64,000 nt of DNA from Candidatus Hadarchaeota archaeon (lineage in GTDB: Archaea; CAYQAE01; CAYVLA01): positions 40,496 to 104,495 of the forward strand of contig CAZUNO010000001.1 in the NCBI GenBank assembly GCA_964621445.1, read 5' to 3'. Shown in pieces: positions 3 through 40,569 of the stretch. Each line of letters opens with the position of its first letter. The first letter of the stretch is position 1. The position numbers and the translations under genes are program-made. Under the pieces are notes generated by a model. That model was given only the letters and a program-made list of their open reading frames with translations, was not told the DNA's origin and did not search any database.

Positions 3-1172
3 ATTGACGGAGAGGTTCTCTTCTCCACCGAATCGACCCGTTTGGCTTTTCTCGCCTTAGCCCTGATGGGATTCGCCATCGATGCGGCGGTGGTGCCTCT
101 CCATATTTGGCTTCCCGGAGCACTTGCCGAAAGCCCCACGCCGATAAGCGCTCTTCTGTCTGGAATCGTGGAGAAGACGGGGATATATGGGATGATTCGA
201 TGTTTCTACTTCGTGGGGGGGATGCCGGCTAATTGGTCTGAGCCGATCCTTGTCCTTGGTTTTCTCACTGCTTTTGTTGGGGTATTTCTGGCTCTGTTCC
301 AGATGGACGGGAAACGTCTCATCGCGTTCTCCACTATTTCACAGATGGGTCTGATAGTTGCCGGGATAGGCAGTGGCTTGGCCCTGGGGGTGACCGGGGC
401 CTTGTATCATGTCCTTAACCATAGCATTTTCAAGTCCCTCATATTCCTTTCGGCCGGCTGGGTCATGTGGTCGGCAGGGACACGTGATTTGCGAACTATA
501 TATAGATCAAGGTCCTCGAGTCCTCTTCTTCTTACGGCTTTCTATATTATCGGCGTCCTCTCGATTTCAGGGATTCCACCGTTTAATGGGTTCTACAGCA
601 AGTCAGTGATTGCGAAGGCCGTCCATCCCGAGTATCCCTTGCTTGCTGGACTCCTCTCCCTTGTTGGAATGTTTACGATCCTTACCTTCGCCAAGCTGGG
701 TTGGTATCTATTCCGTTCAAGTGCGGGCGATGAAAATATACGAAACCCGTTTCCGCTGGTGATTGCGTGCGGATCGCTGGGGACGATGTGCGTGCTGCTA
801 GGATCCGCCAGTGGCCTGGTAGTGAGAGGGTTCAGCGGTATCATGGAGTCCGAACTGGTGGTAACGCCAAAAATCCTGAGCCTCTCAGCGACGACCTTGA
901 TAGGTTATGCCGGATTCATCGGGGCATTTTTTATTTGGTTGAGGAAAAGCCAGATTTACGGATCGCTGACCGAGGGAAGGCTCGGTTTTGTGGGTCGAGT
1001 GGCTCGGAAAGGTCTTTATTTCAATGATGTTGCGGCGTTGCTTGGCCGGGGATTCACCAAGCTTGCGAGTGTTGTTACCATGAGTGCTTCAGGTCTTCAC
1101 CGAGACTACGGTCTTTATATCGTGATTGTCTGGATGGCTGCCATGGTTTTAGTGGTCGGGGGTGTACTTTAA
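3..1172 (+). CDS. Mrp/Mnh antiporter-like subunit (MrpD/MrpA-N, proton-conducting membrane transporter family), 5'-truncated by window edge
   Basis: Frame is open from base 3. Motifs PLHIWLPGA..ESPTPISALLSG, KRLIAFSTISQMG, HVLNHSIFKS and GIPPFNGFYSK; many TM helices. Confidence 0.9.
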   Translation: MDGEVLFSTESTRLAFLALALMGFAIDAAVVPLHIWLPGALAESPTPISALLSGIVEKTGIYGMIRCFYFVGGMPANWSEPILVLGFLTAFVGVFLALFQMDGKRLIAFSTISQMGLIVAGIGSGLALGVTGALYHVLNHSIFKSLIFLSAGWVMWSAGTRDLRTIYRSRSSSPLLLTAFYIIGVLSISGIPPFNGFYSKSVIAKAVHPEYPLLAGLLSLVGMFTILTFAKLGWYLFRSSAGDENIRNPFPLVIACGSLGTMCVLLGSASGLVVRGFSGIMESELVVTPKILSLSATTLIGYAGFIGAFFIWLRKSQIYGSLTEGRLGFVGRVARKGLYFNDVAALLGRGFTKLASVVTMSASGLHRDYGLYIVIVWMAAMVLVVGGVL

Positions 1173-1701
1173 CTTGCAGGTTATCTGGCTACAGCTGTCT
1201 GGCTTACTGTCGGTTTTGGCCTGCTCAGTTCTGGTCATTCGCTTCAGGGATCTATTATCCTGCGCCATTGCATTGGGGGCGGCAGGTTTTTTTGTGGGGT
1301 TGACCTACTTCACCATGGGGGCCACAAATCTCGGTGTTGTCCAGCTTTTGGTGGAGGTAATCAAAACCTGTATCTTGATTTTAGTCGTATCTAAGACTCA
1401 CAGGGTGGGCTTCTCTGTCGAAAGGACAAGGGTTCGATTATCGATAGCTGCGGTCCTAGCCGTTGTGTTTATCCTTTTCTCCCTGTTTGTCACGCCAGCG
1501 ATATCTTCATACGGAGGAAAGCCCTCCGAACTCTCCGATCGATATTCCAAGGAGGCGGATGAACTGACCGGGGCCAGTAATGTTGTGACCGCTATCCTTC
1601 TGGGATTCAGGGCCTATGATACTGCAGGAGAGGTCTGCGTATTTTTCGTAGCTACCCTCGGTGTTGTCATTGTTCTCACCAAAACAGGAGGCGAGTCTTA
1701 A
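1162..1701 (+). CDS. Mrp subunit matching the MrpA C-terminal part (DUF4040 + MbhE-like)
   Basis: Motifs NVVTAILLGFRAYDTAGE and QLLVE; hydrophobic; overlaps upstream gene. Confidence 0.85.
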   Translation: MYFNLQVIWLQLSGLLSVLACSVLVIRFRDLLSCAIALGAAGFFVGLTYFTMGATNLGVVQLLVEVIKTCILILVVSKTHRVGFSVERTRVRLSIAAVLAVVFILFSLFVTPAISSYGGKPSELSDRYSKEADELTGASNVVTAILLGFRAYDTAGEVCVFFVATLGVVIVLTKTGGES

Positions 1702-1702
1702 C

Positions 1703-2104
1703 TTGTCCTTACCAGTTCGGACCGTGTCCCGATTGCTAGCCCCCCTGTTCGTGGTATATGCGGCCAACCTTATAGTCACGCAGGCGACAGCTCCTGGTGG
1801 TGCCTTCGCCGGAGGTGTGGTCGTGGGAGTGACCGCATTCCTGATCATAGTTGGTGAGGAGATGAGGAATGTGATCACTAGGTTCACTTCCTGGCTTGAG
1901 GCGGGTAGGGCCGCAGGTTTTGGTCTGGTTCTAATAGCCAGTTTGTTGGGGGTTGTATTCGGAGGGACTTTTCTCAGTACGGGGTCGTGGTTGGGATTCG
2001 ATTCCTCGCTGCTTAACCTTTTCGGGTTTGCCGCTGGCATAGTAGTTGGGTGCGAGATAGTTCTGGCCTTCGACAAGATGATCCGGACGGAGGCGACCAA
2101 ATGA
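1703..2104 (+). CDS. mnhB: MrpB/MnhB-domain subunit
   Basis: PGGAFAGG motif. In-frame TTG at 1703 follows GGAGG at 1687-1691, preferred over the ORF-track start at 1661. Confidence 0.8.
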   Translation: MSLPVRTVSRLLAPLFVVYAANLIVTQATAPGGAFAGGVVVGVTAFLIIVGEEMRNVITRFTSWLEAGRAAGFGLVLIASLLGVVFGGTFLSTGSWLGFDSSLLNLFGFAAGIVVGCEIVLAFDKMIRTEATK

Positions 2105-2448
2105 GTATCAATGTGGGCATGGTTGTCTACAATCTATCATTCCTCCTTATGCTCTTGGGGATATACTGTGTGTTATGCCATAGCGATATCATCAAGGTGG
2201 TGTGCGGCCTGTCGATTTCGGGTTATGGCGTTACCCTTTTTGTTATCCAGATTGGATACACCCAGAGTGGATCTACCTCAGCTGCTGGAGTCTTCGTTCC
2301 CTCCATGGACCCCTTAATGGAGGCCCTGGTCCTAACAGCGGTAGTGATCGAGACGGGCTTCATGATGCTCATGCTGGCAATAGGGATCAGAATCTTCCAG
2401 CAAGAAGGCCACACGGATCTTAGCCTCCTAAGGAGGTTACGCGGTTGA
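2101..2448 (+). CDS. mnhC: MrpC/MnhC subunit
   Basis: DPLMEALVLTAVVI motif; C-terminal LRRLRG; ATGA overlap with the previous stop. Confidence 0.9.
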   Translation: MSINVGMVVYNLSFLLMLLGIYCVLCHSDIIKVVCGLSISGYGVTLFVIQIGYTQSGSTSAAGVFVPSMDPLMEALVLTAVVIETGFMMLMLAIGIRIFQQEGHTDLSLLRRLRG

Positions 2449-3911
2449 GCCATCTCTACTATCTAGTGGTCCTGCCATTGATCGGGGCAGTGCTGGCCTT
2501 AGTATTTGGCAGGTGGCGCAGAACGAATATATTGATGGCCTCCTTGGTGCTGGGGGCCATGGTGGTCTCAGTAATCAGGATAGGTTTGGATATTTTAGAT
2601 CAGGGTATTGTGACCGAGAGTGTGGGCGGCTGGCCCCTTGGGATGGGCCTCGGGATGGCACTCGACTTATTGGGGCTAGTAATGATAGCGGTTGTAATAG
2701 GACTCTCGGTGATTTCGTTTATCTACTTCTTTGGGAAATTGGAGAGCGATGAGAGGCAATCGAAATTCTACAGCTTGGTCTTCTTCCTAACGGCTGGCTT
2801 GATGGGAATGACGCTGGTTACGGATGTCTTTAACCTATTTGTATTCCTGGAGCTTTCGTCAGTATCGACGTGCGTTCTGGTATCATTCAATGGGGGTATG
2901 GAGGATTTAGAGGCCGCCTTGAGGTACATAGTGCTGGGAACGATAACGAGCTTTGTATTCTTGGGGGGCATCGTTCTTGTTTATGACCAAGTGGGAAGCC
3001 TGAATATGGGAAGCATCGGGGTTTTCATGCGAAATGGGAATGGCAACATCATGACGGATGTCTCGGTGGTAATGATGGCCATCGGGCTGGGATTTCCAGC
3101 CGCCATCTTTCCTCTTCACACATGGTTACCCGATGCCTTTTCAAGGGCACCGTCGGCCAGTACTGCCTTGCTCGCCGGGGCATCGAAGCAGGTGTGTTTT
3201 TACGCTATCGTGAGACTTTTCAATCAGACCATAGGCCTTAATTCTGTATCGATATTGAGGTTGATCCCCTGGATCGGTCTAATGACCGCACTCTTCGGCG
3301 CGCTTATGGCGTTGGTTCAGGTAGATATCAAGAGACTTCTTGGATACACGACCGTCGCCAGCGGAGGTTTTGCGCTGGCATTAGCGGGAATTGGCACCGC
3401 GAGAGGATTCCAAGGTCTGGTTCTACATATGATTAATAGTGCGCCGGCAAAAGCCGTTTTGTTTCTGTCCGCCGGGTGCCTGATATATGGGCTGTCTGTA
3501 CGGGATTACCGGGATATGAAGGGCGCTTGGAGCACCATGCCGGGAGTTTGCTCGGCCTTCCTGGTCGGATGTTTGGCGGATTTAGGTGGTCCTTCACTTG
3601 GATTCTTCAGCAAGGCCTACATGATGTTTGCGTTCTTGGAAACCAGTCCCCTGATGGGATTGGTTGGTGGGCTGTCAACAATATTGATTGCGGCGTCGTA
3701 CATCAAGGTGATTCAAGCCATGGTTTCATCTCCGGATAACGGAGAGGGGTCTAAAAGTGTACCGAGCCCTATGATGATTGCAATTGGGACCTTGGTGGCC
3801 TCCATTATACTATTGACCCTCCTGTTCTGGCCTTTGATCTCCTTTGCAGAGAATACCTCAATCCAAATAATCGATACCGTGAGATTGATAGAAGCAATGG
3901 TTGGGATATGA
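2445..3911 (+). CDS. mnhD: MrpD/MnhD subunit
   Basis: Motifs VGGWP, DVFNLFVFLE, EAALRY, PLHTWLPDAF and DIKRLLGY; about 14 TM helices. Confidence 0.9.
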   Translation: MSHLYYLVVLPLIGAVLALVFGRWRRTNILMASLVLGAMVVSVIRIGLDILDQGIVTESVGGWPLGMGLGMALDLLGLVMIAVVIGLSVISFIYFFGKLESDERQSKFYSLVFFLTAGLMGMTLVTDVFNLFVFLELSSVSTCVLVSFNGGMEDLEAALRYIVLGTITSFVFLGGIVLVYDQVGSLNMGSIGVFMRNGNGNIMTDVSVVMMAIGLGFPAAIFPLHTWLPDAFSRAPSASTALLAGASKQVCFYAIVRLFNQTIGLNSVSILRLIPWIGLMTALFGALMALVQVDIKRLLGYTTVASGGFALALAGIGTARGFQGLVLHMINSAPAKAVLFLSAGCLIYGLSVRDYRDMKGAWSTMPGVCSAFLVGCLADLGGPSLGFFSKAYMMFAFLETSPLMGLVGGLSTILIAASYIKVIQAMVSSPDNGEGSKSVPSPMMIAIGTLVASIILLTLLFWPLISFAENTSIQIIDTVRLIEAMVGI

Positions 3912-4411
3912 TGAGAAAAGAAGGACTGGCTGTATTCGCGTTATCGTACCTTTTCTGGCTTCTGGTCACCCCGGTCCTCGAGACATGGTACCTGCTGTCC
4001 GGGGTCTTGGTTTGTACTTCTGTTGCCTGGGCATTCTCCACCTATTCTTTTGAGGAGATATCGCTGTCTATCCTGGATCCAAGGAAATGGATTTACTTTG
4101 TCAGGTATATCTTGATCTTGGGCTGGGGCATATTATTGGCGGGAATATCGCTGGCCAAAATCATTCTGAAACCGAATATAGAGATACATCCAGGGGTTGT
4201 GGTCATACCGACCAGTTTGGAAAAGCGCTGGGAAAGGACGCTTCTCGCCAACTCGATAACGTTAACACCGGGCACCTTCTTCCTGGACATGGATGAGGAT
4301 GAGGGCCTTCTCTACATTCACTGGATATCCATGAAATCTGAAAGACTGGAGAAGATCAGAGAGATGATCACTGAGAGGTACGAGAGGATTATCGGAAAGG
4401 TGTTTGAATGA
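3908..4411 (+). CDS. mnhE: MrpE/MnhE subunit
   Basis: LLANSITLTPGT and LYIHWI signatures. Confidence 0.93.
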   Translation: MMRKEGLAVFALSYLFWLLVTPVLETWYLLSGVLVCTSVAWAFSTYSFEEISLSILDPRKWIYFVRYILILGWGILLAGISLAKIILKPNIEIHPGVVVIPTSLEKRWERTLLANSITLTPGTFFLDMDEDEGLLYIHWISMKSERLEKIREMITERYERIIGKVFE

Positions 4412-4668
4412 TCCAGTACTTTGCTTGGCCATCGCTGATGATACTCATAATTTCCCTGTTGTTATGCTTCTATAGGCTGGCTAAGGGTCCATCGGCCGCC
4501 GATCAGCTAACGGCGTACGGAACCCTGAGTTCCATGTCTATAGGGATCTTCATGTTGGCTGGGGTGCTGGTTGATACACTTTTCCTGGAGGCAGTCATAC
4601 CCCTGGCCCTAGTCTCATTTGTGGCCATCCTTCTCATAACCCGTTTCCTGGAGGGTGAGGTGGGATGA
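4408..4668 (+). CDS. mnhF: MrpF/MnhF subunit
   Basis: RLAKGPSAAD motif; three TM helices; lies between mnhE and mnhG. Confidence 0.88.
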   Translation: MIQYFAWPSLMILIISLLLCFYRLAKGPSAADQLTAYGTLSSMSIGIFMLAGVLVDTLFLEAVIPLALVSFVAILLITRFLEGEVG

Positions 4669-5711
4669 ATATTTTGGAGGTGATGGTCCAGATGGTGGCC
4701 GGTTCCTTCATGTTGTTTGGGAGCTTCTTTGCCTTGGTTGGAAGCCTTGGACTTGTGAGGCTGCCGGATCTTTATACCAGACTTCATGCCGGTTCGAAGG
4801 CCGTGACGCTGGGTGTAACTGGCCTCGCCATCGGTTCACTAATAATGGCCCCCAGTATATCGGCAACTACAAAGATATTATTAGCCATGGCTTTCATATT
4901 CTTCACTGCTCCAATAACCTCGCATGCGATCGGTAGAGCGGGGTATTACAGCGGCGAGAGGATGTGTCCAGAAACCGTGAAGGACGATTACGAGGCCTAT
5001 GCAATACTTGATCGTAGGGAGAAGCTGTTGAAGGCTCGGGTCAAGGGCCGGGCTTGGCTGGGTGAGAAGAGACAACGGGAGGTTTTTGACCTGGCAAGAC
5101 AGCACATGGACCAGACCCTGGAAGCGGTCCGGGTAATGAACGAGGCGGTGGCCGATTTCCTGAAGGGTGACCTTGAGAATATGGAGGAGGAGGCCGCAAG
5201 GACGATTTCTCTGGAAAATGAGGCGGATAGACTTGCGGTTGAGGCCTTGGAGGTAATATCCAAGTCCGAGCTCTCCCCTGAGGATCGTGGCGACCTTCTG
5301 AACCTTGTTTACAGGGTGAGAAACGTAGGCACCGCGGCAAAAGCCCTGGCCTACAGGTTGGAGCTTGCCGAGGAGTATCACTTTCCAAGTAGAGTGGTCC
5401 CGGGTCTCCAACGACTAGCGGATGCGGTAATGGAGACCGTCGAGACTCTATCATCGGCGGTAACCGAACTCAACAACGACCTGGTCTTGGCCGAGGAGCT
5501 ATCTGATCTGGTCTCCGAGTTGGAGGATATGGTTGATCGCATGCGCAGGGACCTGGTAAAGGTACTCCTGAAGGAAGCGAGGCTTCTGGACGCTGCTTCG
5601 TTCTTCGTGGTTAACGAAGTGATAATGAGATTAGAGGATCTGGCTGATTCATGCGAGGAAACTGCCGATCATATACGGATAATATCGGTAAAGTACCTGC
5701 GGCTTATCTAG
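4665..5711 (+). CDS. mnhG: MrpG/MnhG subunit fused to a C-terminal DUF47 (PhoU-like helical) domain
   Basis: N-terminal GLVRLPDLYTRLHAGSK and TAPITSHAIGRA (MrpG). C-terminal LENEADRL, DRGDLLNL and EDLADSCEETAD (DUF47). One uninterrupted 348 aa ORF. Confidence 0.88.
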   Translation: MNILEVMVQMVAGSFMLFGSFFALVGSLGLVRLPDLYTRLHAGSKAVTLGVTGLAIGSLIMAPSISATTKILLAMAFIFFTAPITSHAIGRAGYYSGERMCPETVKDDYEAYAILDRREKLLKARVKGRAWLGEKRQREVFDLARQHMDQTLEAVRVMNEAVADFLKGDLENMEEEAARTISLENEADRLAVEALEVISKSELSPEDRGDLLNLVYRVRNVGTAAKALAYRLELAEEYHFPSRVVPGLQRLADAVMETVETLSSAVTELNNDLVLAEELSDLVSELEDMVDRMRRDLVKVLLKEARLLDAASFFVVNEVIMRLEDLADSCEETADHIRIISVKYLRLI

Positions 5712-5782
5712 TTCCAATTTTAGTAAATTTGCGATGCTGTAAGGGATAAACAGGTCTATCCTTTCAATAGAGATACCCATGA

Positions 5783-7027
5783 ATGCTATTTATCGAGGTA
5801 ATTCTCTTCTCCCTGGCAGGGGCCTGTCTCGGTATACTGACAGGGTGTACCCCGGGGATCCATGTGAATATGGTTTCGGTTATGATCATTGGCATATATG
5901 CCACCTCCTCTTTGGATCCCGTTCTGTTTGCGGCCCTGGTGATGTCAATGGCCGTTGTTCAGACCTTTCTGGATATTTTACCCGCTATCTTCCTGGGAGC
6001 ACCCGACCCGGATACGGCGCTATCGGTCCTGCCGGGACATAGAATGCTTCTTGAGGGTAAGGGTTTCGAGGCCGTCAAGCTTTCGACGATTGGAAGCCTG
6101 GGGTCGGTTATCCTCGCGACAAGCCTGGCCCTGCCAATGATCTTCATTCTACCAGCGGCATATCCGGTGATTTCCTATTTTCTTTACCCCCTGCTAGTTG
6201 TCTTGGAAGTAAGCATCGTTATGACCGAGAAAACGGCCAAAAAGATGCTTTACGCGCTGCTAGTTCTGGTTTTGAGCGGGATCCTGGGAATGTTGGTCAC
6301 CAATTCAGGGTTCATGCCCACGGACAAGGCCCTATTCCCGGCGCTATCCGGTCTCTTTGGCGTTTCCACCCTTCTATTAAGTTCTGAGAGCGGGGCAAAA
6401 ATTCCCGATCAGGTCATGGATGTGGAGGTTACCATGAGAAAGCTTACCATGGCTAAATCAATAGTGGTCGGGTTCCTGGCAGGAATGACCACTGGAATCC
6501 TTCCCGCCGTCGGCAGTGCTCAGGCCACCATTCTCGCCCAGAGGGCCAGCGGCGAGAGTGATCATCGGTCATTCATGGTCGCTGTAAGCGGTGTTAACAC
6601 CGGAAACATGATCTTCGGGTTAGTTGCTCTGTATACCATAGGGAAGGCGAGAAATGGAGCCGTGCTTGCGGTGGAGGAGATACTCGGTGGAAATCTGGAT
6701 TTAAGCCTGCTTCTCATGTTTCTAGGGGTGGTCTTGATGTGCGGGGGGTTGGGAGCGATTTTGACCCGGGTCGTCGGGGGCCTATTCGCTTCAAGGATTA
6801 GTAGGGCTCCCTATATACCCCTTACCAGAGGAATTATAGCTCTAATTACCGTCCTGGTATTGATAATAAGCGGGCCAAAGGGAGTATTGGTATTGATTAC
6901 CGCCACTTTTGTTGGATTCCTCCCGCCCATACTGGGGGTCAAGAGAGTCCATAGCATGGGATTTCTCATGATACCCACATTGGTCTACTTTTCTGGTTAT
7001 CAATCATTCTTCCTGGGCCTGCTTTAG
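5783..7027 (+). CDS. TctA/DUF112-family integral membrane protein (archaeal type)
   Basis: Motifs GILTGCTPGIHVN, FLDILPAIFLGAP and LSVLPGHRMLLEGKG. Confidence 0.88.
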   Translation: MLFIEVILFSLAGACLGILTGCTPGIHVNMVSVMIIGIYATSSLDPVLFAALVMSMAVVQTFLDILPAIFLGAPDPDTALSVLPGHRMLLEGKGFEAVKLSTIGSLGSVILATSLALPMIFILPAAYPVISYFLYPLLVVLEVSIVMTEKTAKKMLYALLVLVLSGILGMLVTNSGFMPTDKALFPALSGLFGVSTLLLSSESGAKIPDQVMDVEVTMRKLTMAKSIVVGFLAGMTTGILPAVGSAQATILAQRASGESDHRSFMVAVSGVNTGNMIFGLVALYTIGKARNGAVLAVEEILGGNLDLSLLLMFLGVVLMCGGLGAILTRVVGGLFASRISRAPYIPLTRGIIALITVLVLIISGPKGVLVLITATFVGFLPPILGVKRVHSMGFLMIPTLVYFSGYQSFFLGLL

Positions 7028-7079: not shown

Positions 7080-8327
7080 TTACTTCAGTTTGAGCTTGGT
7101 CAGCTCAACTGCTTTGTATAGACGCCTTTTGATCATTAGCACCCAGAGAATTGATCCCGTAAACATTGCCGTCCCGGTAACCACGCACCACTCGGTGAAG
7201 AAAATCCAAAAGGCCGCTTCGTCACGGATTTCTATTGCCTTTTCCATGGCCTGTTGGCACATTAAGAGGGTCTCATCGAATTCTTCAACCGCCTGGTCAA
7301 GCTCGGCGCTCACGTAGTGATCGAGGGCCTTCCTCTTTTGCCCCTGGATATCCTGTATCATCATGTTTATCTGGTTCCCGCTACCGCCGAATCTCTCAAC
7401 TATGTCGACCATGCTGTAGAGGGTGCTGAGGCCTTCGCTGGATTCCCTTAATCTCCTCCTAACCAGGTACATCAGTTCAAGATCATCGGGAAGCTTCTGA
7501 CCGGCGAGGAAAAGCATCATGTTTATGCAGTAATCCCCGTAATAGCGCCAGGTCATGAACTGGTTCCCGCCCGCGGGCGTCCAATCTGCGGACTGGGCCA
7601 TGGTTCTCCCTTCACCTATATCCCACCACATCAGGAAAGGCAGGGTTCCCATGCTGCCCTTTACCAGCTCGGCTAGATAATTAGCCCTCGATCTTGGTTG
7701 TATATTGTTACTGCTGTGGAAGTACCCAAACGCACCTATTTCTTCAAAGGGAAGGCTATCGATAAATTCATCTTCCCAATCGAGTATCCTTATCCTTCCG
7801 CCAGAGAAGGTTAGTGCGGAGGGAATCATGTCACAGGGCAATATATCGGCCACCGAAGTTGGCCCCCAGGACGGGTAGCCTCCTTTCTGGGCGAAGCTCT
7901 CTGCACCACCTATCATCACAAGGCCCTGGCCGCCCTCTTGAACCCCGTCCTTCATCCAGGTGAAATGATCATGTCTGAAGGAGTTCTTATTGGCATCGCT
8001 GAGGACGACAACGTCCTGCTTCAGGTAATCCTCATATCTCCTGGGCATGTATGCCCTCACGCTTTTCTTTATCTGTTCCAACCTCTGGTGGGCGGTGCAG
8101 GCGTATACAGCGGTGCAGTAGAGAAGGGGGTCCTGTTCCATTATGGGGAAGGGGTTTGGGACACCCATTGCATCCCCGATATAGATTACCCTGACCTTTC
8201 CGGTTTGGGGGTCAACTCTCGGTTCTCGTGCCAGGCAGGTAGGCAGGAGAAATATCCCCACCAATACCAGGGAGAGGATAAGAACATGAATTTCTGGGAT
8301 CTTCAACATAATCGACTGGACGCTCAT
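7080..8327 (-). CDS. Uncharacterised signal-peptide, GATase-like-fold, single-pass membrane protein (paralog 1 of 4)
   Basis: N-terminal signal peptide. DVVVLSD, GLVMIGGAESF and VADILP resemble DUF1355/class-I GATase-like domains. Helical region, C-terminal TM and basic tail shared with three other ORFs. Confidence 0.75.
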   Translation of the reverse strand: MSVQSIMLKIPEIHVLILSLVLVGIFLLPTCLAREPRVDPQTGKVRVIYIGDAMGVPNPFPIMEQDPLLYCTAVYACTAHQRLEQIKKSVRAYMPRRYEDYLKQDVVVLSDANKNSFRHDHFTWMKDGVQEGGQGLVMIGGAESFAQKGGYPSWGPTSVADILPCDMIPSALTFSGGRIRILDWEDEFIDSLPFEEIGAFGYFHSSNNIQPRSRANYLAELVKGSMGTLPFLMWWDIGEGRTMAQSADWTPAGGNQFMTWRYYGDYCINMMLFLAGQKLPDDLELMYLVRRRLRESSEGLSTLYSMVDIVERFGGSGNQINMMIQDIQGQKRKALDHYVSAELDQAVEEFDETLLMCQQAMEKAIEIRDEAAFWIFFTEWCVVTGTAMFTGSILWVLMIKRRLYKAVELTKLKLK

Positions 8328-8412: not shown

Positions 8413-9471
8413 TTGATGGGTGAACCGGATTTCTCACGATTGGAAAAGGTCCTAAGGATGGAGGGCGAACCGGACAGGGTCCCCTTATATGAACATCTTG
8501 TGGACGATGAGATAGTATCTGCCATCCTGGGCACCAAGGGATTACCAGGCAACTTCGAGGAAATGGCAAGAAGAAGGGCGAAGTTCTATCAAAAGATGGG
8601 CTATGACTATGTTCCAATCGAGATTAGTTGGCCTATATCCCGAACGAATATACTTCAGATTGAAGATACGGCTCCTTTACCGAGGCAGCAGCGGGCTTGG
8701 GTCGATCAGAAGCACGGTACCGTGGAGAGCTGGGAAGATTTCAATTCATATGACTGGCCAGATGATGATTATGATTACTCGAAAACCATAAGGAAAGCCG
8801 CACATCTGGTGCCCCCCGGGATGAAGATCGTTGCTCACGCCTGCGGAGGGGTCCTGGAGAACACCATGTGGCTTATGGGTTCCCGGAATTTCTCTCGCAC
8901 CCTTCACACCGATCCAAAGCTGTTAGAGGCGATATTCGACAGGATTGGAGGAGCACTGGTAAATGCCTTCAGGAAGGCATCCATGGAACCGGGTGTTGGA
9001 GCTATGTGTCTTGGGGATGACATGGGTCTTAGGACGGGAACTATGATATCCCCGCATGATTTAAGGAAATACGTGTTCCCCTGGCAGAGAAGGATATGCA
9101 ATCAGGCTCATAGAAAGGACCTGCCCTTCATCCTTCATGCCTGCGGAAATCTTACCCGGATAATGGATGACCTGATAGATTTCGTGAAGATAGATGCCAA
9201 ACACTCCTTCGAAGATGCGATAATGCCGGTGGCCGAGGTCAAGAGAAGGTGGGGAGACAGGGTGGCCATTCTGGGCGGGGTCGATGTTGACGTACTGTCC
9301 AGGAGGGATGTCCCTGAGGTGGTCGAATACGTGAAGAAGGTCATGTCACAGTGCCTGCCGGGTGGATGTTGGGCCCTGGGATCGGGGAACAGCATACCTA
9401 ACTACGTGAAGGTGGACAACTACATGGCGATGTTAAAGCAGGGCCCAAAATGGGGAAGATACGGGATCTAG
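8413..9471 (+). CDS. Uroporphyrinogen decarboxylase / MtaA-CmuA (MT2 methyltransferase) family protein
   Basis: Motifs EPDRVP, LGDDMG, ILHACGN, ILGGVDVD and GSGNSIP. Confidence 0.85.
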   Translation: MMGEPDFSRLEKVLRMEGEPDRVPLYEHLVDDEIVSAILGTKGLPGNFEEMARRRAKFYQKMGYDYVPIEISWPISRTNILQIEDTAPLPRQQRAWVDQKHGTVESWEDFNSYDWPDDDYDYSKTIRKAAHLVPPGMKIVAHACGGVLENTMWLMGSRNFSRTLHTDPKLLEAIFDRIGGALVNAFRKASMEPGVGAMCLGDDMGLRTGTMISPHDLRKYVFPWQRRICNQAHRKDLPFILHACGNLTRIMDDLIDFVKIDAKHSFEDAIMPVAEVKRRWGDRVAILGGVDVDVLSRRDVPEVVEYVKKVMSQCLPGGCWALGSGNSIPNYVKVDNYMAMLKQGPKWGRYGI

Positions 9472-11330
9472 TCATCATCCAGCAAGGAGGGGAAGGCCTC
9501 CGGGTCCTTATGAGGTAGATAGGTTGCGTCCATATAGTTACCCGTGAAGTTGTTGGTGCAGGTCAATTCCAGATAGGTGATACTTTCGGCAATCTTTTCC
9601 GCCATCTCCCTAAGGGGGCGTGAAAGAAGGGCAAGTTTTGCCCCCACCGCCGCGCCATTCCCGATGAATTTTAGCCGTTTGTTATCGATGTCAGGAATGA
9701 GACCTATTCTCTTTGCGCTGGAGAAGTCTATGTAGTTGCCAAATCCACCGGCGACAAAGAGGGTGGATACATCCTCGATGGTCTTGTCCATGGCTTCTAG
9801 AAGGGACGCCGCCCCGGTGTAGATGGCGGCCTTGGCCAGCTGGACTTCCCGGATGTCCTTCTGGGTCATCACGATATCGCTGTCCAGGCCAGTTTTTTCC
9901 TGGGGGACGAGCACGAATTCCTTTACACCTTCCCTTTCCCTGATTCTAGGATGGTCCTTGAACCTCCCATCCCTGCCTATGATCTCGTTTTTGGCCAGTT
10001 CTCCCACGGTGTCAATTATACCAGCTCCGGCCAGACCCACCGGCGGGGCATCCCCTATGGCCCTGAAATCGATCACCGAGCCCTCTATCCTTACCTTCTG
10101 GATGGCGCCCTTGGCTGCCCTCATACCGAATTTAAGATGCGCACCCTCCAGAGCTGGCCCTGCTGCGCATGAACAGACGGTTAGTCCATCGGAATCTCCC
10201 AGCACTATTTCGCCGTTGGTTCCTATATCAATGGCCATTGAGGTTTCCTCCGCCTCGTATATCCTGGAGGCAAGGATGACCCCAGTGGTGTCAGCACCCA
10301 CGTAACCAGCTAGGATCGGCAGGGCATGGATCGGGGTATCGGGGTGAATGTTTATACCCATCTCACCGGCAGTGGTCTCGACTCCCCTCTGTATCACGGG
10401 AGTGAATGGGGAGACCCCGAGATATTTGGTGGGAAGACCGAGGGAAATGTGATGCATCACGGTGTTCCCCGCGAGGCATACGTCCAGTACGTGGCTGCTA
10501 CATACGCCCACGTAGCTACAGCATCTGGATATTAGCCGGGATATCTCCTCCGCGACGAGAGAGTGAAGCAACTTTCCATTCTTACTGCTACCGCTCTCGA
10601 AGGCTAATCTGGTTACCACGTCCTCTCCATATGGGATCTGGGGGTTTAAGGATGAGTCCGAAGCCAGGGTTTCCCCCGAAAGCAGGTCCACCAGATAACA
10701 GACCAGGGTGGTGGTTCCAATATCTATGGCTGCCCCAACTGACCTGTGGGTGGTGTCTCCGGGCTCGACCCTCACGACCTTGTGGCCGTTCCAGAGGCTT
10801 AGAGTTACGTCCCAGTGGGCATTCCTTAGTATCTTAGGGCCATCCTTGAGGCATTTCCATCCAACCTCCTCCACCGCTATTCCAAGATCATCGGCTTTTC
10901 CTCTCAATCTCTCGAAGTCAGCGATTGGATCATCCAGAGTTGGCTCCTCCAGTTCCAGGTGATGCTTGGTTATCACCGGATCCAGGGCTATCTCGTAGTC
11001 CATGCCCTCGACCAGTATGTCCGGGAACCCCTCCACGCTCTCCGGGGGTATCTCCACGGTAACATCTTGAATGGGGACCGTTAGGCAGGCCAAGCGTACA
11101 TTCTCTTCGACATCAGAACCCAGTATGTCCAATTCGGCGCCACTCGGTTCTCGTACTGAGCCCTGGTCCCTAATCACTACTCTACACTTTCCGCATTTAC
11201 CCCTCCCTCCGCATACCGAGGGTATGAATTCACCGCACCGACGAGCAGCATCAAGTATGGTTTTATTATCCTCTATCTCCGCCCTTTTACCGGAGGGTTG
11301 AAATGTGACCTCAATGCGCCGCTCATCCAT
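9468..11330 (-). CDS. ASKHA-domain ATP-dependent reductive activator of corrinoid proteins (RACo/DUF4445) with N-terminal [2Fe-2S]
   Basis: Motifs CGGRGKCGKC..RLAC, AIDIGTTT, NPQIPYGEDV, IDIGTNGE, CAAGPALEG and QLAKAAI. Confidence 0.93.
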   Translation of the reverse strand: MDERRIEVTFQPSGKRAEIEDNKTILDAARRCGEFIPSVCGGRGKCGKCRVVIRDQGSVREPSGAELDILGSDVEENVRLACLTVPIQDVTVEIPPESVEGFPDILVEGMDYEIALDPVITKHHLELEEPTLDDPIADFERLRGKADDLGIAVEEVGWKCLKDGPKILRNAHWDVTLSLWNGHKVVRVEPGDTTHRSVGAAIDIGTTTLVCYLVDLLSGETLASDSSLNPQIPYGEDVVTRLAFESGSSKNGKLLHSLVAEEISRLISRCCSYVGVCSSHVLDVCLAGNTVMHHISLGLPTKYLGVSPFTPVIQRGVETTAGEMGINIHPDTPIHALPILAGYVGADTTGVILASRIYEAEETSMAIDIGTNGEIVLGDSDGLTVCSCAAGPALEGAHLKFGMRAAKGAIQKVRIEGSVIDFRAIGDAPPVGLAGAGIIDTVGELAKNEIIGRDGRFKDHPRIREREGVKEFVLVPQEKTGLDSDIVMTQKDIREVQLAKAAIYTGAASLLEAMDKTIEDVSTLFVAGGFGNYIDFSSAKRIGLIPDIDNKRLKFIGNGAAVGAKLALLSRPLREMAEKIAESITYLELTCTNNFTGNYMDATYLPHKDPEAFPSLLDDD

Positions 11331-18060: not shown

Positions 18061-18648
18061 ATGGGTGATGGCATGTGGCCGCTTGAAAACCAACCCTCGT
18101 TTTTGGAGTCTGAGTCCATTCAGATACTTGTCTCAACGGTTACTCTGGGCTCGGCTTTTACACTCGCCCAGAGAGGGGGTTGGAGGACTTTTGTGATCGC
18201 CTGTGCTACGGTTGGGATTGGTTTTGTTGGCCACGAGCTTGCTCACAAGTATATGGCCATGCGCTTTGGTTATCAGGCACGTTATAGAATCTGGCCCATG
18301 GGGCTGGTTTTAGCCCTGCTATTGGCCTTTGTTGCAGTGATATTTGCGGCCCTGGGAGCTGTGAGGATAAGGGGAGCAGGGATGACCAGGGATGAACGGG
18401 GGATTATTTCATTGGCTGGGCCGACATTCAACATTATTCTTTCCGCCCTGTTTATGGGAATGGCAACCGTGTTTTCAGGGGTGTATTCGCAATTTTTTGA
18501 ATTTGGTGCCTTCATTAACGCGCTCATCGCCCTCTTCAACTGCATTCCTTTTTCAATTCTAGATGGTAAGAAGATCTTCGACTGGGATAAGTCAATGTGG
18601 GTTCTAGCGGTCGTGGTGGCTGGCGTACTATTCATATTAAATCAATGA
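18061..18648 (+). CDS. Site-2 protease family (M50) membrane Zn metalloprotease
   Basis: Motifs HELAH, ISLAGP and FNCIPFSILDG. Confidence 0.92.
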   Translation: MGDGMWPLENQPSFLESESIQILVSTVTLGSAFTLAQRGGWRTFVIACATVGIGFVGHELAHKYMAMRFGYQARYRIWPMGLVLALLLAFVAVIFAALGAVRIRGAGMTRDERGIISLAGPTFNIILSALFMGMATVFSGVYSQFFEFGAFINALIALFNCIPFSILDGKKIFDWDKSMWVLAVVVAGVLFILNQ

Positions 18649-18759: not shown

Positions 18760-18870
18760 GTGTTTGGATACTAGTTGACGGCATAGAAATATGCTTTGCC
18801 GACCTCTACGGACCCCCTGATGGTGGTAGAAACAAACATAAGAGAGTTACGGGTAACCGAAAACGGTCAA

Positions 18871-19551
18871 ATGAGAAGATTTGGCATTGAGTGGCTTTCA
18901 TTGAAGAAGCATCGAAAGGTCTACGAGGATCTTTCCGAGCACGTGGAAAAGACATGTGAGGCGGTTAGCCTTCTCCAGGAAGGGGTCAGATGCGTGTGCG
19001 AGAAGGACTACGAGCCATTGGATGAGATTGTCCAAAAGGTTCTGGCCCTTGAGAGGGAAGCAGACGAGATTTCAAAGCAAACGATGGACGACCTGGCCGT
19101 CTCCGTTCTAACTTCCATAGATAGAGGGGACCTGATGAACCTGGTGTTTCAAGTTGAGAAGATCGCTGCCGAGGCCGAAGGGCTGGCCTATAGATTGGAA
19201 CGGGCTAAGAGCCTGGAGATAGCGGTCCCCGCCAGGATCGGTGAGGGCCTGGAGGAGGTTGGTGGTGATGTTTGCAGGACCTTTGACTCGCTTAGGGAGT
19301 GTATTTTTGAGTTGCCATCCAGCCTGGAGGGGGCGGTCTCCCTGGGTGACAGGGTATCCGATCTCGAGGAAAAGGTGGATATAGAGAGGAGAGAACTGTT
19401 GGAGGAACTTGGTGCCGCATTTAAGGACAGTAATGACTTTCTCTCCTACAGCGTGTTGAAGGAGATCATAGATCAGTTTGAGGCTATCGCCGATGATTCG
19501 GAGGATGCCGCCGATCTGATAAGGATACTCTGCGTTAAACACACCGGTTAA
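18871..19551 (+). CDS. DUF47 (PhoU-like) phosphate transport regulator family protein
   Basis: Motifs LEREADE, IDRGDLMNL, LEEKVD and IADDSEDAAD. ATG at 18871 chosen over the longer ORF-track start. Confidence 0.85.
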   Translation: MRRFGIEWLSLKKHRKVYEDLSEHVEKTCEAVSLLQEGVRCVCEKDYEPLDEIVQKVLALEREADEISKQTMDDLAVSVLTSIDRGDLMNLVFQVEKIAAEAEGLAYRLERAKSLEIAVPARIGEGLEEVGGDVCRTFDSLRECIFELPSSLEGAVSLGDRVSDLEEKVDIERRELLEELGAAFKDSNDFLSYSVLKEIIDQFEAIADDSEDAADLIRILCVKHTG

Positions 19552-20130: not shown

Positions 20131-21393
20131 CTAGGTTTCGAAGCGGGTGGCGGAAACCTGTCGATAAAGCTTACGTCGTATCATAAGCGTCCAAACGGCA
20201 ACTCCGACCAGTATAAAGGTCCCGGCCACGGTTAGCCATTCGACGATATACACCCATAGTAGAGCACGGTCCTTAGCATCCAGGGCCGATTGCATGACTC
20301 TATTTAATGAGTCCATGGCCTCCTGCATTTCTGGTATGCACTTCTCGTATTCCTCATCTATCCATAGTTCATCGACATTCCTTCGAAGAGAATCGGTCTC
20401 TGAAAGTTCTTCATTTAACTCGTTTATGTTTGCCCCGAACGTATCAGCGAATTCTATAAGGGACAGGACCAGATTTTTGGTTGACTCGTAATCGCTGATT
20501 TCCGACCTTAGCGTGTGGGTTAGGGAGACGTCGCCGGGTATCTTGGCCCTGGCCGGGAAGTAGACCAGGCGGGCAAGAACGTCTTTCCAGTACGCCCATC
20601 TATAAAATTCTACAATTCCATTTCCTCCCCAATCCCATACGAAGGCCAAAGACCGCCCTTGGCCGTAATCCCAGTAGATTATGACCTCGTCGTTCTTGGG
20701 ATCCGTGGATACGGTTTCATCGGTGGTGACTGCTAGTATGGTAGCTCCATCCTTGGGATCCGGTCTATTATGTGACCATATCAAGGGCATTTTCTCCCAC
20801 GGTATGCCCTTGGTGAGTGGGCTGTCAGTCACCGGCTTAATCCTGAAGTTGTGGTCACGGAAGCTTTTGCGACCTGCCTTAACAACGGGAAGTATGTCCC
20901 CGACCGGTGTGGGGTCCCATGGAGGTCCCGTGGTCCACACCGTGTCCGACCCACCGAAGGAGGTAGGGTCATCGGACATCAAGAATCCCATTCCAATATC
21001 CTCCACACCTTCTTTGATCCATTTTTGAACCTCGATTTTGAGGTCACTGGAGCGTATAGCCGTTAGGATTACCATATCGTAGTTTTGAAGGAAGTCAGAT
21101 CGGCTTCTTGGCAGGTAAAGTCGCAGAAACCTCTCCATCTGTTGTTTTCCAAAGGAGGGGTTGGTGGACCCGATTTCGGCTGGTATTCTCATGAGCTCGA
21201 TCTTGGGGTCCTCAATGAAGGCTCTTGTAGGGTATCCTGGTTTAACATAGGGATCTCCTATGAAAAGGGTACGTATCCTGCCGGTATTGGGATCCACCTT
21301 CGGTTCAGCAGTGACAGATGCAGATGCTGCGGCCAGGAAAAGGGCGATGATAATTAACCTAACTCTAGGCATCGGATATAATTTGATCCACAT
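20131..21393 (-). CDS. Uncharacterised signal-peptide, GATase-like-fold, single-pass membrane protein (paralog 2 of 4)
   Basis: PKVDPNTGRIRTLFIGD, RLYLPR, PVGDILP, YGQGRS and the shared C-terminal anchor motif. Confidence 0.75.
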   Translation of the reverse strand: MWIKLYPMPRVRLIIIALFLAAASASVTAEPKVDPNTGRIRTLFIGDPYVKPGYPTRAFIEDPKIELMRIPAEIGSTNPSFGKQQMERFLRLYLPRSRSDFLQNYDMVILTAIRSSDLKIEVQKWIKEGVEDIGMGFLMSDDPTSFGGSDTVWTTGPPWDPTPVGDILPVVKAGRKSFRDHNFRIKPVTDSPLTKGIPWEKMPLIWSHNRPDPKDGATILAVTTDETVSTDPKNDEVIIYWDYGQGRSLAFVWDWGGNGIVEFYRWAYWKDVLARLVYFPARAKIPGDVSLTHTLRSEISDYESTKNLVLSLIEFADTFGANINELNEELSETDSLRRNVDELWIDEEYEKCIPEMQEAMDSLNRVMQSALDAKDRALLWVYIVEWLTVAGTFILVGVAVWTLMIRRKLYRQVSATRFET

Positions 21394-38889: not shown

Positions 38890-40569
38890 TCACAAGGAAT
38901 CGGATAATCTCGATATTCCCATGATAATGTGGGGAGGGGTTATCAATCCAAATACCCTTTTGTATTTTGCCTTTGAGATGTCCTTAAACGTCTGTATATC
39001 TCCCGAATTTTCGTAACCCCGCACGAAGGCCTCTACAATAGGTTTCATCTTGCTCCATCTCAGCGTATAATGACCGGAATAGTAGAGAAACTCCGCCAGA
39101 TCCCAGCTTGGATTTCCTTCTCGGATTGCCTGCTCCAGGTCAACGAACCATATATGGTCATTGGCGTCGATTATCATATTATCTGGCTTAGAATCTCCCA
39201 GGGAGGCACCAAGTGAATGTATATCTCCAATTTTCTCACCAAGTTTTTCGACATCCATCAAGGATGCTTGTCTCCCTTTTGATAGGAATTCCTTAACCAC
39301 CTCATCAAATCCTCTGCCTTCAATGTACTGTTCGATTATGGTCAATTTGGGCATGCTGATGTGGTAAATGGCGGGAACGTTAATTCCCTTGGACCCCAAA
39401 TAGCGGTTCATCTTGTATTCGTTGGCAAGGCGACGTTTGCCGGAAACATCAAAGTTCTGGGCTCCGATCGTCCACAAGGTAACTGGAACCCATTTTAGGC
39501 CGTACCAGTTCTGGTAGGACTTTGCCACAAGCTTCTTCGAAAGTTTATCGTTTTCAAGCTCCACCAGATAAACGTAGTTCAATGCTCCACCTATCCGTCT
39601 CATTGAACCCTCCCCCTCATGCCCGACTTCTGAGGAGATTATCTCCTTGACCCCTCTCTCGTCATCCATTGAAACCATGCCCCTCTCGGTCTTTAAGTAG
39701 AGAAAAGATTTTGGATCTGGCATTTCCAAGTGCAAGTCTTCAGGGGATTTCAAAGTCTCTGAGAAATCATTGAGAATCGAGCGATCGAGCAGGTCAACCG
39801 CAGTCCCATAGGCGGCCAGTCTCCTGACTGCATGTTCAACCTCTCGAAAGGGGACCAGTGCTTTTGAATTCTCACCCGGTAGATCTTGGACTAGTTTTTC
39901 AGTGGCCCGTGCATAATGGTTCAAATCAATTAACCCTGATGAATCAAGTTCCTTGAGAGCTGGAAGAAATCCGAAACTCCGGTCTTCGTTAGGATAGCCG
40001 TTCGATGAGAGATAGTTCCTTCCCGATAGCTGGCGTATCTTTATCCTCCGCTGTACTCTCTGATGGAAGAAGAAGGGGGGATCAATCAATAACTCCGTGA
40101 ATAGGCTGCCAAATCTCAAACTGAGATTATTCAATTCCTCCCTAACAACTCTCTTCTTGAACTCGGTCTCATTTCTTTGTAGGTATTCCGGGTTGCGGAG
40201 TGCCTTGTGTGGAAGAAGGAGGAAAGAGGCGACGAAATCCCCCAAGAATCCGTTTGTCACATCCTTCTCAAATAGATCTCTGGACACAATTGTGATCACA
40301 AAGTTGAGACCCTGCTTTTCAACTATCCTTCTATTGAGATGATCCTGAGGTTTCTTCAGGACCAACAGGATTTCCACAGAGTTTTGGGTTTCGGTGAAAG
40401 AAGTAAGGAAACATGAGGCTTCAGGGACCTCAAAATTTGTGGAAATGATTTGTGATATTATTTCTTTGACCCTGGTAGGAGACAACGACCCACTTTCGAC
40501 ATGAAGACTTATTTCTCTTCCCTTAAGATCAAGAAAGATTATAAAAGCCGCCCTTGTCTGAGCCTTCAA
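38890..40569 (-). CDS. Protein with C-terminal atypical kinase domain (Kdo/RIO/Bud32-like) and uncharacterised N-terminal region
   Basis: VAK lysine, RLANE, EQYIEG hinge, LGDSKPDN catalytic loop, FVDLE and WDLAEF. The true start may be later (TTG at 40485). Confidence 0.75.
   Translation of the reverse strand: MKAQTRAAFIIFLDLKGREISLHVESGSLSPTRVKEIISQIISTNFEVPEASCFLTSFTETQNSVEILLVLKKPQDHLNRRIVEKQGLNFVITIVSRDLFEKDVTNGFLGDFVASFLLLPHKALRNPEYLQRNETEFKKRVVREELNNLSLRFGSLFTELLIDPPFFFHQRVQRRIKIRQLSGRNYLSSNGYPNEDRSFGFLPALKELDSSGLIDLNHYARATEKLVQDLPGENSKALVPFREVEHAVRRLAAYGTAVDLLDRSILNDFSETLKSPEDLHLEMPDPKSFLYLKTERGMVSMDDERGVKEIISSEVGHEGEGSMRRIGGALNYVYLVELENDKLSKKLVAKSYQNWYGLKWVPVTLWTIGAQNFDVSGKRRLANEYKMNRYLGSKGINVPAIYHISMPKLTIIEQYIEGRGFDEVVKEFLSKGRQASLMDVEKLGEKIGDIHSLGASLGDSKPDNMIIDANDHIWFVDLEQAIREGNPSWDLAEFLYYSGHYTLRWSKMKPIVEAFVRGYENSGDIQTFKDISKAKYKRVFGLITPPHIIMGISRLSDSL

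Follow-up and report, generated by a model that had tools for sequence, protein, structure and literature searches.

Steiner and Sazanov (PMC7419157), in the passages that deal with the small subunits of the Mrp antiporter, describe parts of the MrpG helices and the ferredoxin-fold domain of MrpE as exposed to the cytoplasm. An essential proline in the third transmembrane helix (TMH3) of MrpG bends that helix at its contact with the MrpE domain, opposite D35 of MrpF on the proposed Na+ path, and MrpE and MrpG form monomer–monomer contacts and lie at the dimer interface (passages of PMC7419157). The role of the proline is also treated in a passage of the review PMC5703873. DUF47 (PitR) proteins, of the PhoU family, are known from phosphate import: passages of PMC13170248 present them as the partners of PitA phosphate transporters, with phosphate-homeostasis genetics given there for bacterial PitR only, and state that PhoU, PitR and NptA's fused PhoU domain each cooperate with a phosphate importer of their own. 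NptA's C-terminal PhoU domain acts on its own carrier, and NptA without the fused domain gives a growth change that suggests control of import (passages of PMC13170248). Here we describe a gene that joins MrpG to DUF47. It lies in a window of 64,000 nucleotides (the whole stretch of DNA that was analysed; contig CAZUNO010000001.1 of assembly GCA_964621445.1, positions 40,496 to 104,495, forward strand) from an archaeon labelled Candidatus Hadarchaeota, and encodes an MrpG-family protein with a C-terminal domain that Pfam assigns to DUF47. The fusion is real, conserved, rare and mechanistically suggestive.

The gene is a single open reading frame (ORF) at 4665..5711 on the + strand, with an ATG start and no internal stops, encoding 348 amino acids (aa). 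Its parts are as follows.

4665..5711, + strand: mrpG-DUF47 fusion gene, 348 aa, delineated by Pfam, NCBIfam, alignment of homologues and an AlphaFold2 (AF2) model
4665..4949, + strand: MrpG membrane part, residues 1–95, with helices at 3–32, 36–61 and 65–95 and the invariant P83; target TM-score 0.83 to 7qru_G in Foldseek
4950..5072, + strand: conserved linker, residues 96–136, of which those up to about 119 are native MrpG tail; helix at 108–130, and a predicted local distance difference test score (pLDDT) of 81–90
5073..5690, + strand: DUF47/PhoU_div domain, residues 137–342, six helices forming two three-helix bundles, from Pfam, AF2 and Foldseek

The Pfam family PF03334 (PhaG_MnhG_YufB) matches residues 15–94 over its entire 80-position profile (E 2.3e-25, 89.1 bits against a cut-off of 23.4), and PF01865 (PhoU_div/DUF47) matches residues 137–342 over profile positions 6–213 of 214 (E 1.9e-23, 83.4 bits against a cut-off of 24.4). 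A reading made from the letters alone (the sequence-only reading) had taken the frame to be MrpG followed by a full DUF47 domain, and it is borne out by both families scoring above their curated cut-offs. The NCBIfam models for subunit G of the Na+/H+ antiporter are also passed, NF009314 with 112.2 bits (cut-off 102) and TIGR01300 with 97.9 bits (cut-off 63.1). The Pfam scan gave no match of the window protein to PhoU proper (PF01895) at E <= 0.01; a homologous fusion in genome G002 has a sub-threshold match to that family (E 0.0054, 17.5 bits versus 23.5). The ATG of the fusion gene is overlapped by the mrpF stop (ATGA), with a GGAGG-type motif just 5′. A candidate internal start at M100, which would give a free DUF47 protein, has only a weak GAGAGG directly abutting its ATG. 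At the Joint Genome Institute (JGI) such fusions bear one of two names, 'predicted phosphate transport protein (TIGR00153 family)' and 'antiporter subunit G', with no remark from the annotators.

The AF2 model, calculated from a 146-row alignment, has a pLDDT of 94.7 and a predicted TM-score (pTM) of 0.83. After the three membrane helices there is a loop, then the linker helix, and then six helices over residues 135–346. In Foldseek the N-terminal part matches the MrpG chains 7qru_G, 6z16_G, 6u8y_C and 7d3u_G, and for the C-terminal part the matches are crystal structures of DUF47 proteins (2IIU, 3L39 and 2OLT; target TM-score 0.81–0.85), together with the PhoU structures 1T8B, 1T72 and 4Q25. 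Sequence alignment to 6u8y_C, a solved MrpG subunit, reaches residue 119. Since the similarity to MrpG runs to about this residue, the native MrpG tail has been retained and the DUF47 domain starts some 10 residues later. P83 is invariant in the 17 fusions and nearly so in the 146 sequences. In the C-terminal domain the residues conserved throughout the DUF47 family are kept (W131, H147, E184, E186, D188, R208, E287, D291, E324, D328, E331 and D335); D291, E324 and D328 are present in 43 of 43 DUF47 representatives and in 17 of 17 fusions, while E184, D188, E287, E331 and D335 are mostly kept. Pfam, the homologues, the predicted fold and Foldseek agree that a soluble PhoU-like module is built onto MrpG, as had been supposed.

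Among 5.8 billion proteins there are 17 matches at E <= 1e-5. Sixteen are full-length fusions of 341–348 aa (47–96% identity, coverage at least 97%), each with both Pfam families, and the seventeenth is a free DUF47 protein. All 16 are intact. The junction (about 4950–5072) is bridged, with no differences, by a contig (X2 record 4, 4839–5481) of a second sample, and by a contig of another study (X4) with 139 substitutions and no gaps over 4301–6000, so that neither shows an indel. The interdomain stretch ranks with the most conserved parts of the fusion alignment, having 12 invariant residues (M100, P102, D107, Y109, K120, L121, A124, R125, R129, W131, L132 and G133). Over residues 96–134 it is 77–92% identical within the host's family, compared with 56–88% for the membrane part, and 54% identical to a distant fused clade; the linker's conservation equals or exceeds that of the membrane part. 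In a codon comparison with six relatives the ratio of nonsynonymous to synonymous substitution rates (dN/dS) is 0.05–0.17 where dS is measurable, dS being saturated elsewhere. The fusion is genuine, conserved and under purifying selection.

It is also rare. A HMMER search of 1.84 billion cluster representatives gave 3,628 matches, and of the best 150 just one, the protein P0015 (49% identity), extends over both domains, each of the others being confined to the MrpG part or to the DUF47 part. The host's lineage is rare and uncultured; its phylum comprises five species-level genomes, and the fusion is found in four of them, including all four genomes of the host's family. It is absent from the single genome of the other family in the phylum and from 36 other archaeal genomes. 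A metagenome scan added eight further fused loci, and the holders of the window sequence are labelled as microbial mat and hypersaline lake metagenomes, with no RNA run among those listed. The labels of the fusion records are inconsistent: two read 'Candidatus Hadarchaeota', one 'uncultured Thermococci', one 'Thermoplasmata archaeon UBA9212' and one 'Candidatus Methanolliviera'. The UBA9212 and Methanolliviera records form a clade of 46–51% identity and are the only carriers among the 151 and 5 sampled genomes of their classes, which suggests either lateral transfer or mis-binned short contigs. The two loci of this clade, L025 (genome G041) and L026 (G042), sit in bins of two other archaeal classes on contigs of 8.9 kb and 3.2 kb. 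Outside the host's phylum the fusion is thus sporadic. No description of the architecture was found in the literature searched (partly at title level, supplementary tables aside); the sequence-only reading likewise knew of no such fusion. In the passages of the review PMC5703873 that bear on fusions, only that of mrpA with mrpB is mentioned.

The host genome contains four full stand-alone DUF47 genes besides the fusion, and one partial match under the cut-off. The gene with the best Pfam score (133 bits) lies directly 3′ of the only PiT/PHO4 gene in the genome, on contig C5, and the two form a classical pair; the fused domain has no such neighbour. Other paralogues adjoin an M50-like peptidase, a Lon-like protease and a purple-acid-phosphatase-like gene. 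One of them is in the window (18796–19551, +), preceded by the gene for a small M50-like membrane peptidase (18061–18648, +); its identity to the fused domain is 37%, the trees place it with the nearest relatives of that domain, and its orthologue in genome G003 is at a similar distance from the fusion. The paralogue beside the gene for a purple-acid-phosphatase-like metallophosphoesterase is at 72293–75913 of contig G000:C10 (L016), and a link to phosphate for the DUF47 subgroup without PiT is possible from this neighbour.

The relationships of the DUF47 domains were analysed in quick IQ-TREE and FastTree trees of 76 sequences: the 17 fused domains, the genome's 4 own paralogues, 12 sequences taken from relatives, and 43 representatives. 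FastTree places all the fused domains in a single clade (0.996), and on the quick IQ-TREE tree it takes one change to obtain a single origin (support 67). The fusion thus arose once, from a DUF47 lineage other than that of this genome's PiT partner. The closest unfused MrpG (L027, 130 aa, 41–42% identity) is encoded in an operon of the same order, followed by an ORF without a Pfam match and then an M29 peptidase gene on the other strand. As no DUF47 gene follows there, the fusion is not derived from adjacent genes still visible at that locus, and a split ancestor with neighbouring mrpG and DUF47 genes was rejected for it.

The fusion gene terminates a run of eight reading frames beginning with mrpA, all on the same strand and each overlapping the next by a few bases. 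The other frames, and the gene that follows, are listed here.

3..1172, + strand: mrpA, 5′ end missing (Pfam Proton_antipo_M, E 9.2e-42), with a run of N just left of the window
1162..1701, + strand: separate gene for the C-terminal, MbhD/MbhE-like part of MrpA (Pfam MbhD, E 6.6e-11; MbhE, E 8.4e-08)
1661..2104, + strand: mrpB (Pfam MnhB, E 4.8e-11)
2098..2448, + strand: mrpC (Pfam Oxidored_q2, E 7.6e-15), start uncertain, the ORF being open from 2050
2445..3911, + strand: mrpD (Pfam Proton_antipo_M, E 2e-51)
3908..4411, + strand: mrpE (Pfam MNHE, E 3.2e-37)
4408..4668, + strand: mrpF (Pfam MrpF_PhaF, 23.1 bits, just short of the 23.3 cut-off)
5783..7027, + strand: TctA-family permease gene (Pfam TctA, E 1.3e-51), 72 bases 3′ of the fusion

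The NCBIfam models for subunit F match mrpF with E down to 3.4e-14, yet under their cut-offs. The TLTPGT motif of MrpE is invariant in 93 homologues. Aromatic amino-acid biosynthesis genes lie upstream of the operon; attachment to a respiratory module was ruled out, there being no hydrogenase or Nuo genes upstream, and the complex is therefore a stand-alone Mrp. The run of N (about 9895–10000 of L100; G000:C1, about 40390–40495) interrupts mrpA and removes its 5′ end from the window. The mrpA product of relatives is about 600 aa long, and a 192-aa ORF upstream of the N run encodes a soluble protein that has no Pfam match and is not part of mrpA. In a survey of 12 fused loci (the 1.2 kb locus L106 left out) the fusion is directly 3′ of mrpE–mrpF in all 12, with the whole operon present where the contig is long enough, and it is the last mrp gene of a full operon wherever upstream sequence exists. 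The description of the fusion as the last gene of the Mrp operon is right insofar as it is the last mrp gene; the TctA-family gene follows closely on the same strand. Elsewhere in the genome a second cluster of Mrp-like small subunits (G000:C3, about 66468–69680; L020) resembles the membrane arm of an Mbh/Mbx-type complex; its genes are MNHE-like (129 aa), G-like and unfused (96 aa), and NuoK-like (142 aa).

Lysine and arginine residues are clustered, with three in loop 1 and 11 in the C-terminal tail after helix 3, against none at the N-terminus and one in loop 2. From this clustering and the structural passages of PMC7419157 the DUF47 domain would be cytoplasmic, beside the MrpE domain and near the proposed Na+ gate and the dimer interface. 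Around residue 33 the MrpF of the window reads GPSAADQ. If the numbering is that of Bacillus pseudofirmus, which we assume by position only, D32 is kept and Q replaces R33. An MrpF-R33A mutant has been made in B. pseudofirmus, according to a passage of the review PMC5703873.

A mechanism can be proposed for the fusion. The protein is a genuine MrpG of a stand-alone Mrp (CPA3) cation/proton antiporter, and its C-terminus, predicted to be cytoplasmic, continues through a short conserved helical linker into a complete PhoU-fold domain of the DUF47 (PitR) type. This domain would be held against the MrpE/F/G small-subunit module on its cytoplasmic side, the site of the proposed Na+ gate and dimer interface in published Mrp structures, where it would sense a cytoplasmic ligand and modulate antiport by its own complex. 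The analogy with the PhoU family makes phosphate or a divalent metal a possible ligand. On balance we judge it rather probable that the fused domain is a built-in cytoplasmic regulatory module, acting on its own antiporter via a putative ligand; the analogy to a regulator comes from the passages of PMC13170248 on PhoU, PitR and NptA. There is a further parallel: among eight long MrpG homologues scanned, three from other organisms (P0127, P0039 and P0049) carry a universal stress protein (Usp) domain at the C-terminus.

Some observations weigh against this reading. The NCBIfam model TIGR00153, a hypothetical equivalog of DUF47, gives 55.6 bits, under its cut-off of 104.3. A six-helix bundle could be purely structural. 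In two trees the fused domains fall in a subgroup of DUF47 that does not include the PiT-adjacent paralogue, the split being supported by a Shimodaira–Hasegawa-like approximate likelihood-ratio test (SH-aLRT) value of 95 on both sides in quick IQ-TREE and by 0.969 in FastTree. As the fused domain is outside the subgroup of the PiT-adjacent paralogue, the analogy to phosphate regulators is weakened and the link of the fusion to phosphate is weak. The sequence-only reading had spoken of a possible phosphate-linked Mrp complex; given the separate PiT–DUF47 pair in the genome and the different subgroup of the fused domain, this is not supported. As the acidic residues conserved in the family are kept, phosphate or metal is nevertheless a possible ligand. 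The more specific idea, that a PitR-type domain was recruited to a non-phosphate transporter and gates Na+/H+ antiport by the cytoplasmic status of phosphate or metal, is in our estimate tentative and rather doubtful.

The bundle might instead sense nothing and only stabilize, at high salt for instance, either the Mrp dimer or the complex at its thin MrpE/F/G end. The position of MrpE and MrpG at the dimer interface (passages of PMC7419157) would suit such a role, as would the rigid-looking and conserved linker, the high pTM, and the labels of the sequence holders as microbial mat and hypersaline lake metagenomes. The conserved acidic residues, unnecessary for a scaffold, are nonetheless kept and invariant, and L027, the closest unfused relative, has the same operon without such a domain. 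We regard a role in structure alone as unlikely.

Somewhat less likely still is that MrpG serves as a membrane anchor for a DUF47 domain acting on another transporter, for instance PiT or the TctA-family permease encoded next to it. On this view the fusion would be the trace of a functional connection of Mrp with that transporter, and free DUF47/PitR proteins do act with a neighbouring transporter (passages of PMC13170248). A TctA-family gene is found 3′ of the fusion in five of the eight distinct loci with downstream sequence (the window, L022, L023, L101/L102 and L103). It is missing downstream in L024/L104, L026 and L107, and L026 has a peptidase S9 gene in its place. All five TctA-bearing loci have RACo and a GATase1-like gene in common as well, with a URO-D-type gene in four; because of this further synteny they are one syntenic block and count as a single observation rather than independent support. 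PiT is on another contig with its own DUF47. The TctA permease was rejected as a functional partner, its adjacency being confined to that block, and the gene is probably a neighbour and not a functional part of the system.

Further genes of this region were noted. The gene for a URO-D-type methyltransferase is at 8413–9471 (+) and that for the corrinoid-activating protein RACo at 9468–11330 (−). In L022, L023, L101/L102 and L103 the synteny with the mrp operon extends to RACo, and in all of these but L023 to the URO-D gene as well. The 96%-complete host genome has no match to MCR_alpha. Two paralogous genes at 7080–8327 (−) and 20131–21393 (−), of about 415–420 aa, have weak to moderate matches to GATase1_like, and the first is kept in synteny beside the TctA-family gene.

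It is very improbable that the Mrp complex has changed its substrate and moves phosphate or a metal phosphate, as had also been suggested. Only the family name of the fused domain points that way. All seven Mrp subunit families are present with their conserved motifs, and the Mrp residues examined, P83 of MrpG and the TLTPGT of MrpE, are kept; nothing indicates phosphate transport by the complex. To our knowledge no PhoU-family domain is itself a transport pathway. That an assembly or frameshift error joined two adjacent genes can be dismissed, as no point in its support was found and it is ruled out by the 16 independent intact homologues, the four genomes, the eight metagenome loci, the bridging contigs from two studies without indels and the conserved linker.

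How PhoU-family accessory proteins act on transporters is still unclear in the field, and we know of no regulatory subunit of Mrp antiporters. The fusion is a natural stoichiometric complex, in which a full DUF47 domain is fixed to the small-subunit module of Mrp next to the proposed Na+ gate, and it is therefore suited to cryo-electron microscopy (cryo-EM) and vesicle assays. It shows DUF47 domains in use outside the context of PiT. Taken with the MrpG-Usp fusions, it marks the C-terminus of MrpG as a place where cytoplasmic sensor domains have repeatedly been attached. Were the domain to gate antiport by phosphate or metal status, the sodium and proton homeostasis of a salt-adapted archaeon would be tied to its phosphate economy, and DUF47 domains would be shown to dock directly on membrane transporters and gate them, beyond two-component signalling. 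How a PhoU-family domain engages a transporter could then be seen structurally for the first time, the domain being joined covalently to a complex already solved by cryo-EM. If the domain is only structural, the finding is a lineage-specific curiosity.

The fusion may finally be set beside the known systems. The canonical MrpG/MnhG/PhaG proteins used for comparison were chain G of 7QRU (Bacillus pseudofirmus), chain G of 6Z16 (Anoxybacillus flavithermus) and the MbhC/MbsC subunits of 6CFW and 6U8Y. Like canonical MrpG, the fusion has three membrane helices, the RxPDxYxRxHA motif and the TMH3 proline (P83), and is encoded last in an mrpA–G operon. It matches the canonical structures with sequence E values of 1.2e-17 to 4.7e-07 and target TM-scores of 0.65–0.84. 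Canonical MrpG proteins are 113–133 aa long and end shortly after TMH3, whereas the fusion adds about 230 aa that form a soluble domain. With the DUF47 proteins (Staphylococcus aureus PitR; 3L39, 2IIU and 2OLT) it shares a full PF01865 match, the six-helix fold and the acidic residues. Free DUF47 proteins are about 205–230 aa long; in the fusion the domain is, by contrast, covalently joined to a subunit of a Na+/H+ antiporter and is not beside PiT. The Na+/phosphate transporter NptA of S. aureus is a precedent, in that a PhoU-family domain is placed on what would be the cytoplasmic C-terminus of a membrane transport protein. NptA differs in being a single-chain phosphate importer with a PhoU part that belongs to another clade and is much shorter (residues 450–534, in the passages of PMC13170248), whereas in the fusion a cation/proton antiporter of several subunits bears a whole DUF47 domain on one of its small subunits. 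The MrpG-Usp proteins differ in the nature of the added domain, which has the Usp alpha/beta fold rather than a PhoU helical bundle, and they are unrelated to the DUF47 clade; like the fusion, they carry a sensor-type cytoplasmic domain at the C-terminus of MrpG.

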